Below are positions 39,854 to 62,885 of a DNA stretch of 64,000 nucleotides, in pieces. The stretch is from Escherichia phage vB_VIPECOOM01, in the sequence record OQ721909; one strand, given 5' to 3'. Numbering within the stretch: the stretch's first letter is position 1; each line of letters starts with the position of its first letter. A program made the translations under genes and the position numbers. Under the pieces are notes generated by a model that was not told where the DNA came from, did not search any database, and saw nothing but the letters and a program-made list of their open reading frames with translations.

Positions 39854-40149
39854 TTACATTTATCCTCTTTTAACTCTTGACGATAATAACATATCATAGT
39901 TTTCTGGTCATGCACATATCGTTTTACATCATTAAGCCAAATACGAAATTCCTGGGAATCTTCAAATGGCATACCGACCCAAGCTTTACCATCGATAACT
40001 TTAACTTGCCAAGATAGTTTAGCTTCATCATATGACTTTATCTGCACAGGCCAATTAGGATGAACTGTTTCTTTCTTTACTTCTAGAGGCTTTGTCGAAC
40101 AACCAACTAGAAGACCAATAGATAATATTACTGCTGATAGTTTAATCAT
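39850..40149 (-). CDS. outer-membrane spanin lipoprotein (Rz1-like; pseT.2-like)
   Basis: 99 aa; signal peptide with lipobox 'LLVGCS'; 4-nt overlap with upstream i-spanin. Confidence 0.65.
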   Translation of the reverse strand: MIKLSAVILSIGLLVGCSTKPLEVKKETVHPNWPVQIKSYDEAKLSWQVKVIDGKAWVGMPFEDSQEFRIWLNDVKRYVHDQKTMICYYRQELKEDKCK

Positions 40150-53310: not shown

Positions 53311-53318
53311 TATAAATA
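53311..53318 (+). promoter_or_regulatory. late promoter TATAAATA (gene 34)
   Basis: Exact TATAAATA 35 nt upstream of ATG. Confidence 0.7.
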
Positions 53319-57230: not shown

Positions 57231-58346
57231 ATGGAAAAATTTATGGCAGAGTTTGGACAAGGATACGTCCAAACGCCATTTTTATCGGAAAGTAATTCAG
57301 TAAGATATAAAATAAGTATAGCGGGTTCTTGCCCGCTTTCTACAGCAGGACCGTATGTTAAATTTCAGGATAATCCTGTCGGAAATCAAACATTTAGCGC
57401 AGGTCTTCATTTAAGAGTTTTTGACCCTTCAACAGGAGCATTAGTTGATAGTAAGTCATATGCTTTTTCTACTTCAAATAATACTACATCAGCTGCTTTT
57501 GTTAGTTTCATGAATTCTTTGTCAAACAATAGACTTGTTGCTATATTAACTAGCGGAAAGGTTAATTTTCCTCCTGAAGTGATATCTTGGTTAAGGGGAG
57601 CAGGAACTTCAGTTTTTCCATCAGATTCAGTATTGTCAAGATTTGACGTATCATATGCTGCTTTTTATACTTCTTCTAAAAGAGCTATTGCATTAGAGCA
57701 TGTTAAACTAAGTAATAGAAAAAGCACAGATGATTATCAAACTATTTTAGATGTTGTATTTGATAGTTTAGAAGACGTCGGAGCTACGGGATTTCCTAAA
57801 AGAACATATGAAAGTGTCGAGCAATTTATGTCAGCGGTTGGTGGAACTAATAACGAAATTGCGCGATTGCCAACTTCAGCTGCTATAAGTAAACTATCTG
57901 ATTATAATTTAATTCCTGGCGATGTTCTTTATCTTAAAGCACAGTTATATGCTGATGCTGATTTACTTGATCTTGGAACTACAAACATATCCATTCGTTT
58001 TTATGATGCATCAAATGGATATATTTCCTCTACCCAAGCTGAGTTTACTGGGCAAGCTGGGTCTTGGGAATTAAAGGAAGATTATGTAGTTGTTCCTGAA
58101 AATGCAGTCGGATTTACTATATATGCGCAGAGAACTGCTCAAGCTGGTCAAGGCGGAATGAGGAATTTAAGCTTTTCTGAAGTATCAAGAAATGGCGGCA
58201 TTTCAAAACCTGCCGAATTTGGCGTCAACGGTATTCGTGTTAATTATATCTGTGAATCGGCTTCACCTCCAGATATAATGGTACTTCCTACACAAGCCTC
58301 TTCTAAAACTGGCAAAGTGTTTGGGCAAGAATTTAGAGAAGTTTAA
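57231..58346 (+). CDS. 35: long tail fibre hinge protein gp35
   Basis: 371 aa; syntenic. Confidence 0.9.
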   Translation: MEKFMAEFGQGYVQTPFLSESNSVRYKISIAGSCPLSTAGPYVKFQDNPVGNQTFSAGLHLRVFDPSTGALVDSKSYAFSTSNNTTSAAFVSFMNSLSNNRLVAILTSGKVNFPPEVISWLRGAGTSVFPSDSVLSRFDVSYAAFYTSSKRAIALEHVKLSNRKSTDDYQTILDVVFDSLEDVGATGFPKRTYESVEQFMSAVGGTNNEIARLPTSAAISKLSDYNLIPGDVLYLKAQLYADADLLDLGTTNISIRFYDASNGYISSTQAEFTGQAGSWELKEDYVVVPENAVGFTIYAQRTAQAGQGGMRNLSFSEVSRNGGISKPAEFGVNGIRVNYICESASPPDIMVLPTQASSKTGKVFGQEFREV

Positions 58347-58351
58347 ACTGA

Positions 58352-58369
58352 GGGAGCCTTCGGGTTCCC
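58352..58369 (+). terminator. UUCG-tetraloop terminator after gene 35
   Basis: gggagcc-ttcg-ggttccc then 'ttttt'. Confidence 0.75.
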
Positions 58370-58377
58370 TTTTTCTT

Positions 58378-58385
58378 TATAAATA
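58378..58385 (+). promoter_or_regulatory. late promoter TATAAATA (gene 36)
   Basis: Exact TATAAATA 24 nt upstream of ATG, after gene 35 hairpin. Confidence 0.7.
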
Positions 58386-58408
58386 ATATTAAAATAAAGG
58401 GGCATATA

Positions 58409-59073: not shown

Positions 59074-62022
59074 ATGGCTACTTTAAAACAAATACAATTT
59101 AAAAGAAGCAAAACCGCAGGTCAACTTCCTGCTGCTTCAGTATTAGCCGAAGGTGAATTGGCTATTAATTTAAAAGATAAAGCAATTTTCACAAAAGATG
59201 ATTCAGGCAATGTTATAGAATTAGGTTTAAAATATGGAGGAACAATTGATGGTTCTTTAACTGTTAATGGAAATATAACTGGAACTTTAATTGGAAATTC
59301 TAGCACAGCTACTAAATTGCAAACACCTAGGAAAATTAATGGTATATCCTTTGATGGGTCAAAAGATATCACGCTAACTCCATCTGACATAAATGTCAAT
59401 AGCACAACGTTTATAAAAAATAACGGCGAATTACCGGTTGATGCTAATTTAGATGAGTATGGGCCTGTTGAAGAATATCTTGGGGTTTGGTCGAAATCTA
59501 CTTCAACAAATGCGCAACCGGCAAATAAATTCCCAGAAGAAAATGCCGTAGGTGTACTAGAAGTATTTGTGGCCGGTCAATTTGCTGGTACTCAGAGATA
59601 TACTGTAAGATCTGGTAACGTATATGTTCGATCTTTGTCTGCTAAATGGAACGGTGTTAACGGTCCGTGGGGAGTTTGGCGTAATGTTCAAGCGTCAACT
59701 CGTCCACTTTCACAAACGATTGACCTTGATAGCTTGGGAGAATTAGAACATTGCGGCTTATGGCGAAATAGTTCAAGTGCTATTGCATCATTTGATCGCC
59801 ATTATCCAGAAGAAGGATCAGCCGCACAAGGATTTTTAGAAATATTTGAAGGTGGTTTATACACGAGAACGCAGCGATATACTACCCGCATGGGTATGGT
59901 TTATACTCGTTGTCTCGCTGCCGCATGGGATGCTAGCGCACCCAAGTGGGAGGAATGGAAGCAGGTTGGTCATGGCACACCAGCGACTTTTTATGATGGA
60001 GATCTGAATGATTTTAAAACTCCTGGGTTATATAATATTTTAGGCACTGATGCCGTTATTAATTGCCCTACAGGTGAAGGTTTACCAGCCGTTATTGTTG
60101 GTTTGCTAGAAGTTAAACAGCGTGCTTCTGGTGGTGCTATTTTCCAAAAATTTACTACTGCCGGAACGGGTGAAACTACTCGCGATCGTATTTTTGAGCG
60201 TGCATATACTGGTGGTGCGTGGGGTGCATGGAACGAAGTATATACATCTTATTCTCTGCCAATTACTTTGGGTATGGGTGGTATTAAAGCTCAATTATCG
60301 GAGTTAGATTGGCAAACCTTTGATTTTGTTCCTGGTAGTATGTTTAGCGTTCCTTTGAACAAAATAAAGAATATGCCAGCAAATATGGATTGGGGCACGA
60401 TTGATGGAAACCTGGTTATGTTTTCCGTTGGTCCTAGCGAACATACTGGCACAGGACGTACTGTTCAGGTTTGGCGTGGTACTGTATCCCAGACAAACTA
60501 CCGTTATTTTGTTGTGCGTATAGCTGGAAATCCAGGAAACAGGACTAACACTTGTCGCCGTGTTGTTCTTGAAGACGGATCACATACTTGGACTGCTCAA
60601 CAAAACTTTAGGGGATTGCTAAATATCACCGCTGATATTAATCTTGGTGCTAATAAGAAAATTTCAATTGCTCCGGGAGCATATATTCAAGGCCCTGCTA
60701 GCGGTTCTGGTTCAAATACTTACGCAAATCAGAATACTACTATTGCGCCATTATATCAGGCCATTGACGATTCAAATAAAAACCAGTTTGCTCCTATTGT
60801 AAAACAGAAAAACACTGTAACAAATATTACTATGGCTTCTGGTATGGATATTGCTAGTTCAGAATATCGTATCATTGCTCAAGGTGATTTATCCGCTACT
60901 GGAACTACAGCTAATGAATTAGCTACATGGCGTTTCTTGCCGTCTGGCCGATTCATGTCACAAAGTCGAGTTTATGCTGGCGCAGCATTCTTGAACACTG
61001 ATGGTAACATTGCTGGTTCAATCTGGAAGAAATACAACGATGCAACCAACTTAGACGCTGCTTTGAATACTCGCGTAGGTAAAAGCGGTGATATTATGAC
61101 CGGACGCTTGACAATTCAAAGCCCAGGTGATTCTATTGTATTATCAGCACCTGCTAGTAATTCTTTGCATATTCGTGGTGACGTAGACGGGACTGGTAAC
61201 TGGTATATTGGTAAGGGTGGTGATGATAATGGATTAGCGTTCTATAGTTATGCTACTAATGCTGGTGTATACATTACAAACGCAGGAGATATCACGCTAA
61301 GTCCAAAAGGCGTCGAAATGGCTCATGTCAATAACATTCGATTATATGTTCATGGTGAACGTTGGACCGCTAGTCAACCAGGTGATTGGGGCAACCAATG
61401 GCGAGTAGAAGCGCCAATATTCGTCGATCATGGTTATGTTGGATCAGATAGCTATTATCCAATTATTAAAGGAAGAAGTGTAGTCACCAATCAAGGGTTT
61501 GTAACTGCCGTCGATCTTGGTATTCGTCGTGTCCCTAATAATTGGGGACAAGCAATTATTCGTGTTGGATCTGCGGAGGCATCGCCAGCGGCTGGACACC
61601 CTAACGCGGTATTTGAATTTCATTACGACGGTACTTTCTATTCTCCTGGTAATGGTAACTTTAACGATGTGTATATTCGTTCCGATGGTCGACTTAAGAT
61701 CAATAAAGAAGAGTTAGAAAACGGAGCACTTGAAAAAGTATGCCGACTGAAGGTTTATACATACGATAAGGTTAAGTCTATTAAAGATCGTAGTGTTATT
61801 AAACGTGAAGTTGGTATTATTGCTCAGGATCTTGAAAAAGAATTACCGGAAGCTGTGTCTAAAGTTGAAGTTGATGGATCTGATGTTCTGACAATTTCTA
61901 ACTCCGCTGTGAATGCTCTTTTAATTAAGGCTATCCAAGAAATGAGCGAAGAAATTAAAGAATTAAAAACGCCTTTCTTCACTAAAATTGCTCGCAAAAT
62001 TAGTAATTATTTTAAATTCTAA
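59074..62022 (+). CDS. 37: long tail fibre distal subunit gp37 (with C-terminal intramolecular-chaperone-like domain)
   Basis: 982 aa; N-terminal '[22 protein letters not shown]' as T4 gp37; C-terminal 113 aa resemble an endosialidase-type auto-chaperone. Confidence 0.92.
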
Positions 62023-62028
62023 CAACAA

Positions 62029-62041
62029 GGGGCTTTGCCCC
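62029..62041 (+). terminator. hairpin after gene 37
   Basis: ggggc-ttt-gcccc then 'tttgg'; short loop. Confidence 0.45.
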
Positions 62042-62054
62042 TTTGGAGAAAATT

Positions 62055-62855
62055 ATGGCAGTAGTTGGTGTTCCCGGTTGGATTGGAAGTTCATCTGTAA
62101 ATGAAACAGGACAACGATGGATGAGTCAAGCGGCTGGTCAATTAAGATTGGGTGTTCCTTGCTGGATGAGCCAATTCGCCGGACGCTCAAGAGAGATTAT
62201 TCATACCGTAACAGCAAACCATAACTTTAATGGTCAATGGTTCCGCGACCGTTGCTTTGAAGCTGGCGGTGCACCCATTGTATTCAATATTGTTGGTGAT
62301 ATCGTTTCTTATTCTAAAGATGTGCCACTTTTCTTTATGTATGGGGATACGCCTAATGAATATGTTGTTCTTAATATTCATGGCGGTGTTCATATGTGGG
62401 GTCGTGGTGGTAATGGTGGATACACTCACTCAGGAGGCGACGGTAACGGTACACAAGGCGGTCATGTTATTCAAAATGATATCGGTGGACGGCTTCGTAT
62501 TTGGAACTACGGTGTTATAGCTGCTGGCGGTGGTGGTGGTGGCGGTATTGCATATCGTCCACACTCAGGGGCAAACTGGCAAGATATCGGTGGCGGTGGC
62601 GGTCGACCTTTCGGTGGTGCTGGCGGTGGCGGTTATTCCGGTGGTGCTGCTTCGTATGAAGGTCCGGGTGGTGGTTATGACTATGGTAACGCACACTCCG
62701 GCGCAGGCGGTAATGCTGGTGCTGCTGGTCAGAATGCATGGTATGACGGCGGTAAAGTTCTTAAAGTTGGTGTTGGTGGTGCGTCTGGTCATGCAGTGTT
62801 TGGATCTTCTCCAACTTGGGGTGCTGTTGGAACAATTTACGGACCAAGAGTATAA
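62055..62855 (+). CDS. 38: gp38 receptor-binding adhesin, T2-type (glycine-rich motifs)
   Basis: ORF-track start 62043 is TTG; ATG 62055 gives 266 aa; C-terminal half has poly-Gly blocks (GGGGGGG, GGGGG, GGAGGGG) separated by short variable segments. Confidence 0.85.
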
Positions 62856-62885
62856 TTTGAATAAATATCCTTAAAAGGAGGGTCT

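Follow-up and report, generated by a model that had tools for sequence, protein, structure and literature searches.

A probable gp38 tail-fibre adhesin of the Ox2 subtype, with OmpA as its predicted receptor, encoded by gene 38 of an Escherichia phage

Gene 38 of the phage DNA described here very likely encodes a receptor-recognising adhesin of the long tail fibre, belonging to the Ox2 subtype and acting according to a proposed four-step mechanism in which the outer-membrane protein OmpA is contacted. The window, that is, the whole stretch of 64,000 nucleotides analysed, comes from Escherichia phage vB_VIPECOOM01 (OQ721909). From position 40000 to 64000 it is 100% identical to Escherichia phage vB_VIPECOOM03 (OQ721911.1), a Tequatrovirus that was obtained from hospital wastewater in the Philippines and propagated on E. 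coli ATCC 25922 (PMC10508110). Gene 38 is likewise 100% identical at the nucleotide level to the coding sequence WFG78408.1 of that genome, which is annotated only as 'tail fiber protein'. Copies of gp38 with at least 90% protein identity occur in about 40 phage records, and some relative of the protein is present in 804 records; in the close relatives EcNP1, Nami, ESh29, ASO78A and OE5505 the protein is 99.2-99.6% identical. The adhesin is already known, in that an identical protein has been deposited, two crystal structures exist for the family and the prediction of receptors by gp38 clade has been published. A first-pass annotation, made from the sequence without database searches, had proposed an adhesin, a mosaic host-range module and variable segments as the determinants of receptor choice; this reading is supported and corresponds to textbook biology, so that the current understanding of gp38 is unchanged.

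The reading frame of gene 38 begins with the ATG at 62055 and comprises 266 codons followed by a stop codon at 62853-62855 (Table 1). A program-made list of open reading frames opens the gene at an in-frame TTG at 62043; the ATG is favoured as the start because the homologues all begin with MAV(V/E)G. The first-pass annotation had described a gp38 of 266 aa with poly-Gly blocks, and all the blocks that it quoted were found in the frame 62055-62855 on the plus strand: GGGGGGG at aa 158-164, GGGGG at aa 179-183, GGAGGGG at aa 187-193, GPGGG at aa 203-207 and GAGGNAGAAG at aa 216-225. Glycine accounts for 36% of aa 116-266 as against 12% of aa 1-115. In gp34, gp35, gp36, gp37 and holin t the glycine content is 4-11%, and runs of more than two glycines are absent from these five proteins. 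In shuffles of gp38 that kept its composition, seven or more glycines in a row appeared in 1.3% of cases and three or more runs of at least four glycines in 3.7%. The short aromatic-containing segments that had been proposed to lie between the blocks are also present, each inter-block segment holding two to five aromatic or His residues. In an alignment of 17 homologues, the glycine motifs are kept column by column and the intervening segments are variable. Three overlapping frames of 74-114 aa, located at 62530-62874 on the plus strand and at 62515-62739 and 62565-62792 on the minus strand, were rejected as genes and regarded as composition artefacts of G-rich DNA.

The family of the protein and the order of its domains could be read directly from profile matches. 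Pfam GP38 (PF05268, 'phage tail fibre adhesin') matches aa 47-266 with an E-value of 3.2e-66 (223.7 bits, cut-off 25), and Gp38_N (PF21721) matches aa 1-42 with 1.4e-19 (70.2 bits, cut-off 25). The PHROG family phrog_2056, 'tail fiber protein; host specificity', matches with 9e-108 and is covered from position 1 to 266 of 267; NCBIfam lacks a family for either gp38 or gp37. Among solved structures, PDB 9V85, the receptor-binding domain of PP01 gp38 (PMC12892980), aligns to aa 38-266 (3.9e-61), and chain D of 6F45, which is S16 gp38, aligns to aa 5-263 (3.2e-43) with the glycine motifs in register. A single-sequence AlphaFold2 model of gp38 reached a mean pLDDT of 32.6 and a pTM of 0.17 and was too poor to use; the fold was therefore taken from sequence homology to the crystal structures. 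From the homologues, gp38 would be expected to be present in the virion and to share their fold. The label 'T2-type' given by the first-pass annotation holds in the broad sense of the family; the precise type is Ox2, to which the protein is 96% identical as compared with 48% for T2.

Table 1 Features of the gp38 region (positions are those of the window)
Feature	Position	Strand	Remarks
T4-type late promoter TATAAATA	58378..58385	+	ahead of gene 36; pattern search
Gene 37, distal long-tail-fibre subunit, 982 aa	59074..62022	+	predicted docking partner of gp38
gp37 C-terminal intramolecular chaperone, aa 870-982, 113 aa	61681..62019	+	Peptidase_S74
Shine-Dalgarno GGAG	62045..62048	+	6 nt 5' of ATG; read off sequence
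Gene 38, gp38 tail-fibre adhesin (very likely)	62055..62855	+	266 aa plus stop; ORF, Pfam, PHROG
N-terminal attachment domain, aa 1-42	62055..62180	+	Pfam Gp38_N
Conserved linker and first part of beta-helix domain, aa 43-115	62181..62399	+	T6-like; alignments, nucleotide profile
Gly-rich motif GRGGNGG, aa 116-122	62400..62420	+	T6-like/Ox2-like switch about here
Hypervariable segment 1, aa 123-134	62421..62456	+	start overlaps position of PP01 loop A
Conserved beta-helix return, aa 135-157	62457..62525	+	conserved columns
Poly-Gly motif GGGGGGG, aa 158-164	62526..62546	+	aligns with S16 GGGGGGGG run
Hypervariable segment 2, aa 165-178	62547..62588	+	PP01 loop B; R-(P/V)-HSGA motif
Gly-rich motif GGGGGRPFG, aa 179-187	62589..62615	+	(nearly) invariant in all homologues
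Hypervariable segment 3, aa 188-215	62616..62699	+	short internal Gly motifs; PP01 loops C and D
Gly-rich motif GAGGNAGAAG, aa 216-225	62700..62729	+	alignment
Hypervariable segment 4, aa 226-240	62730..62774	+	PP01 loop E
Last Gly-rich motif GGASGHAV and conserved C-terminal strand, aa 241-266	62775..62852	+	alignment

The domain map in Table 1 was drawn from the alignment of 17 homologues (T2, T6, Ox2, RB32, PP01, S16 and ten IMG/VR contigs), following a published layout scheme of conserved Gly motifs and hypervariable segments (PMC3157838). Five conserved Gly-rich motifs, the last of them at aa 241-248, and four variable segments were distinguished, and the C-terminal end is conserved. In the attachment domain, W9, W22 and W37 are invariant in the 17 homologues including S16, in which Trp 'prongs' of gp38 dock onto the gp37 trimer at its tip (PMC6851490, PMC7917993). 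The S16 run GGGGGGGG, residues 151-158 of that protein, was designated polyglycine-II (PGII) helix 3 by the S16 authors (PMC6851490). The R-(P/V)-HSGA motif of the second variable segment is that of the 'type 1' OmpA binders, corresponding to R165-A170 of AV119/FL08 (PMC12032242). Five receptor-recognition loops have been defined on the PP01 crystal structure (PMC12892980). When transferred to gp38, four of these fall at aa 167-176, 191-194, 209-213 and 229-235 and loop A at about aa 122-127, and all five lie within variable segments or at their edge. In a T6-like homologue of 277 aa from an IMG/VR contig (IMGVR_UViG_2974787500_000001; L010 4001-4831), a stretch of 17 residues composed of a poly-Gly motif and the variable segment following it is duplicated in tandem (…GGGGGYYSPFSQMRLTF, present twice); this is a duplication of a whole motif-plus-loop unit within an adhesin.

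The mechanism proposed for gp38 begins with its partner gp37, which would trimerise aided by the intramolecular chaperone at its own C-terminus. The chaperone would then cut itself off after DVYIR869, releasing 113 aa, and one monomer of gp38 would cap the exposed tip of the gp37 trimer, its N-terminal helical domain inserting W9, W22 and W37 into hydrophobic pockets on gp37. The rest of gp38 would form a beta-helix, and the Gly-rich motifs extending from it would come together as a flat 'sandwich' of packed polyglycine-II helices. The hypervariable segments would be loops at the distal end of this sandwich and would contact the surface loops of OmpA, giving rise to the reversible first step of adsorption. 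Capping, docking of the Trp residues, the polyglycine-II sandwich and the binding of OmpA loops are predicted from the structures of S16 and PP01 and from the genetics of T6 and Ox2.

Over the full length of gp37, identity to the T6 protein is 78%, and the C-terminal part of gp37 is Ox2-like. Pfam Peptidase_S74 matches aa 870-928 (1.1e-11), and the protein carries the motif DVYIR^SDGRLK with the junction R869/S870, aligned to NVSSDRRIKK of S16 gp37 (6F45_A). In S16, the last 113 residues of gp37 are auto-cleaved at the equivalent site and the docking surface for gp38 is thereby exposed, and a motif identical to the one found here, DVYIR^SDGRLKI, has been reported in fPS phages (PMC7917993). 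The autocleavage predicted at R869/S870 would also release exactly 113 residues. Within the C-terminal part of gp37 (aa 601-982, 60874-62019), aa 659-728 resemble the T7 tail-fibre protein gp17 (7BOZ, 4A0T; E = 5e-4). This stretch overlaps the Pfam gp37_trimer match and looks like a fibre module that is common to unrelated phage groups. Another side observation concerns gp35 (57231-58346), the proximal hinge connector in the long tail fibre, in which aa 58-120 match Pfam ILEI above the gathering score (3.3e-8); ILEI denotes the interleukin-like EMT inducer or FAM3 fold, an unexpected name for a phage fibre protein.

The gene order g34-g35-g36-g37-g38-t-asiA is the same as in T2, T6, RB32, PP01 and S16. 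Apart from the late promoter ahead of gene 36, a second T4-type late promoter TATAAATA was found by pattern search at 53311, ahead of g34. Directly upstream of g38, neither a sigma-70-like nor a T4 late promoter was found, and a terminator search from g36 to g38 gave weak internal matches only, with none convincing between g37 and g38. As the promoter of gene 36 is the nearest one upstream of gene 38 and no convincing terminator intervenes, g36, g37 and g38 are probably transcribed together as one late transcript. A hairpin, GGGGC-TTT-GCCCC, in the gap between g37 and g38 (62029-62041) was rejected; its fold is no more stable than those of shuffled sequences (z = -0.8). On the other side of the gene, in the g38/t intergenic region (62856-62885), the sequence AATAAATA at about 62861-62868 differs from the late promoter TATAAATA by one mismatch, and phage ASO78A has a late promoter annotated at this same place; holin t may have a late promoter of its own. 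The deposited genome OQ721911.1 holds, at about 154381-154507 (L002 2200-2326), a perfect tandem duplication of 127 bp made up of the end of g35 and 34 further nucleotides, which is absent from the g35/g36 intergenic region of the window (58347-58408). The largest default k-mer of SPAdes is 127. The duplication looks like an untrimmed overlap of a circular contig left in the deposited genome.

The first-pass annotation had also held that the host-range module is mosaic relative to a T4-like backbone, and comparison with T4 agrees with this. The proteins gp34, gp35, gp36 and holin t are 91.5, 96, 80 and 98.6% identical to their T4 counterparts, so that the flanks stand at 80-99% identity, whereas gp37 is similar (77%) only over its first 66 aa and gp38 has no similarity at all. 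Judged by these values, the block exchanged relative to T4 extends from about residue 66 of gp37 through the end of g38, which is how T4 is known to differ from the T2/T6 group. Most T4-type phages have the adhesin form of gp38, T4 itself being exceptional (PMC3157838, PMC6851490), and hence 'mosaic' describes the normal state for the genus. At the level of sequence, gene 38 is itself mosaic, with a T6-like N-terminal half and an Ox2-like specificity domain. Residues 1-115 differ from T6 at one position (99.1% identity) and from Ox2 at six, whereas residues 116-266 are 97.4% identical to Ox2 and 51.3% to T6. In a nucleotide identity profile the switch falls at about 62365-62424, where the first Gly motif lies. 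Two haplotypes, V-T-N...G...V..I and L-G-D...S...T..L, turn up repeatedly in the N-terminal part of different Ox2-subgroup members; this agrees with the proposal in the literature that specificity determinants are easily exchanged thanks to the modular build of gp38 (PMC3157838).

The most likely receptor of gp38, as judged from its sequence, is OmpA, an outer-membrane protein of E. coli. The gp38 specificity domain (aa 116-266) falls in the clade of Ox2, RB32 and AV119, with identities of 97.4% to Ox2, 83.4% to RB32 and 82.1% to AV119 as against 51.3% to T6, which uses Tsx. The variable segments of gp38, Ox2, RB32 and AV119 are equal in length and carry near-identical motifs, including R-(P/V)-HSGA. 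OmpA is given as the receptor of Ox2 in the introduction of one study (PMC12032242). RB32 needs OmpA, and the composition of the LPS matters as well (PMC3157838); AV119 was found to depend on OmpA in deletion mutants and was classed as 'type 1' (PMC12032242). According to two independent studies, similar gp38 sequences lead to the same receptor (PMC12032242; bioRxiv 10.64898/2026.04.02.716166). It is on the segments shared with these three OmpA-dependent phages, together with this rule, that the prediction is founded. The proposal of the first-pass annotation that the variable segments are the likely receptor determinants matches the established model (PMC3157838, PMC6851490, PMC12892980, bioRxiv 10.64898/2026.04.02.716166). 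For vB_VIPECOOM03, the genome announcement gives only the propagation host ATCC 25922 and no receptor (PMC10508110).

The gene number invites another reading, in which the product is a non-virion chaperone of the T4 type that helps gp37 to fold and is then released, leaving the tip of gp37 to bind the receptor. In T4, gp38 is indeed absent from the virion and the receptor is bound through the gp37 tip (PMC6851490), and the homologue in the ASO78A GenBank entry is labelled 'distal long tail fiber assembly catalyst'. The name of the gene and its place downstream of g37 are, however, all that the two have in common. The first-pass annotation had named full-length alignment with T4 gp38 as one finding that would refute an adhesin, and BLASTP of gp38 against T4 gp38 gave no similarity (best E = 9.3, over 21 aa). 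T4 gp38 (NP_049864.1) has 183 aa and matches no Pfam family, whereas gp38 here matches GP38 and Gp38_N in addition to the PHROG family and both structures. The partner differs too, T4 gp37 having Collar and Phage_fiber matches and no S74 domain, and gp37 here having the self-cleaving S74 chaperone and neither of those matches. In T6, virions of gene 38 amber mutants were morphologically normal yet unable to adsorb (PMC3157838). The chaperone reading is refuted at the sequence level and has next to no probability. Hardly any more credence is due to the view that the Gly-rich stretch is low in complexity and without specific function, in a frame that is open by coincidence. The G-rich DNA is also free of stops over long stretches of other frames and of the opposite strand, but the motifs are kept columnwise in 17 homologues of several genera while the segments between them vary, and two crystal structures resolve the residues to which they align. 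Moreover, T6 derivatives from which individual Gly motifs or variable segments had been deleted gave no functional phage (PMC3157838). Conservation and homology to solved structures have already refuted this reading.

For an adhesin of the Ox2 subtype, the remaining alternative is that the primary receptor is something other than OmpA, namely Tsx, OmpC, OmpF, FadL or a sugar of the LPS core, or else OmpA together with a second factor. Substitution of a single loop residue can switch the receptor of a gp38, as shown by Q206L in a hypervariable loop, which changed it from OmpF to OmpW (bioRxiv 10.64898/2026.04.02.716166), and Ox2 host-range mutants in which receptor use is changed have been mapped to the hypervariable regions, as summarised in a further study (PMC12892980). 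The differences from Ox2 include positions 174, 193 and 230, which lie in the predicted recognition loops B, C and E. Together with the effect of single loop substitutions, these differences make the exact specificity less than certain, and the OmpA specificity, being drawn from homologues, is stated as a prediction. RB32 and Ox2 are in addition sensitive to LPS composition, and Ox2 was counted by Trojet et al. among the phages that need more than one host factor (PMC3157838). Against a different receptor, the subgroup consensus has N174 and G193, which the OmpA-dependent AV119 also carries; among the 11 members compared, K174 and R193 occur in the Ox2 record alone. Residue 230 is a Y/S/H polymorphism, the most varied site in the Ox2 subgroup, with Tyr in four members, and gp38 here can therefore be regarded as a common allele. 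Identity to T6 (Tsx) in the specificity domain amounts to no more than 51%, and over the whole protein it is 58% to PP01 (OmpC) and 48% to T2. A primary receptor other than OmpA is accordingly improbable. A related idea is that the combination of a T6-like attachment half, an Ox2-like specificity domain and Tyr230 changes the range of OmpA loop variants accepted, or adds a second receptor, as compared with Ox2 and EcNP1; this is doubtful, and it deserves consideration because a change of one loop residue is known to be able to redirect a gp38 to another receptor. If it were true, the Y230S difference from EcNP1 would be a natural single-residue switch of host range.

With OmpA kept as the predicted receptor, the entry 'tail fiber protein' in GenBank can be made more precise, as 'gp38 adhesin, Ox2/type-1 subgroup, predicted receptor OmpA', and the label 'assembly catalyst' carried by some relatives is wrong. 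Phage therapy was the stated aim for vB_VIPECOOM03 (PMC10508110). Under the OmpA prediction, resistance should come mainly through loss of ompA or through changes in its loops, and partners in a cocktail should therefore target other receptors.

Among known systems, the closest well-described relative is Ox2 (X05675.1, CAA29158.1), whose gp38 also has 266 aa and shows 96.2% amino acid and 93% nucleotide identity. Ox2 gp38 is reportedly the OmpA-recognising adhesin that was studied by Henning's group. The Gly motifs and the lengths of the variable segments are all as in the protein described here, and the flanking C-terminus of g37 and the t gene are the same. Ten substitutions separate the two proteins. 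Six are situated in the N-terminal half, where gp38 here follows the T6 haplotype; the others found in Ox2 are N174K, G193R and Y230S, in the predicted receptor loops B, C and E, and A257V near the C-terminus. EcNP1 gp38 is closer still, its sole difference being Y230S.

AV119/FL08 (Lutz et al. 2025) and RB32 belong to the same specificity-domain clade, at 82-83% identity. AV119 and RB32 have in common with gp38 here the motif IAYR(P/V)HSGANWQDI of hypervariable segment 2, the motif of hypervariable segment 4 and D/N at the position of AV119-217. Scattered substitutions occur within the variable segments and beside them, at 123, 133, 169, 202, 203, 209 and 217. AV119 also has a different N-terminal attachment domain (70% identity), which lacks the VP insertion. 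At a greater distance, the gp38 proteins of S16 (45% identity) and PP01 (58%) possess the same architecture in three parts, namely attachment domain, beta-helix and polyglycine-II sandwich, and their Gly motifs align with those found here (PMC6851490, PMC12892980). Both bind OmpC, and their variable loops differ from those of gp38 here in sequence as well as in length. T4 gp38 has the same gene number and the same place between g37 and t, but its sequence is unrelated.
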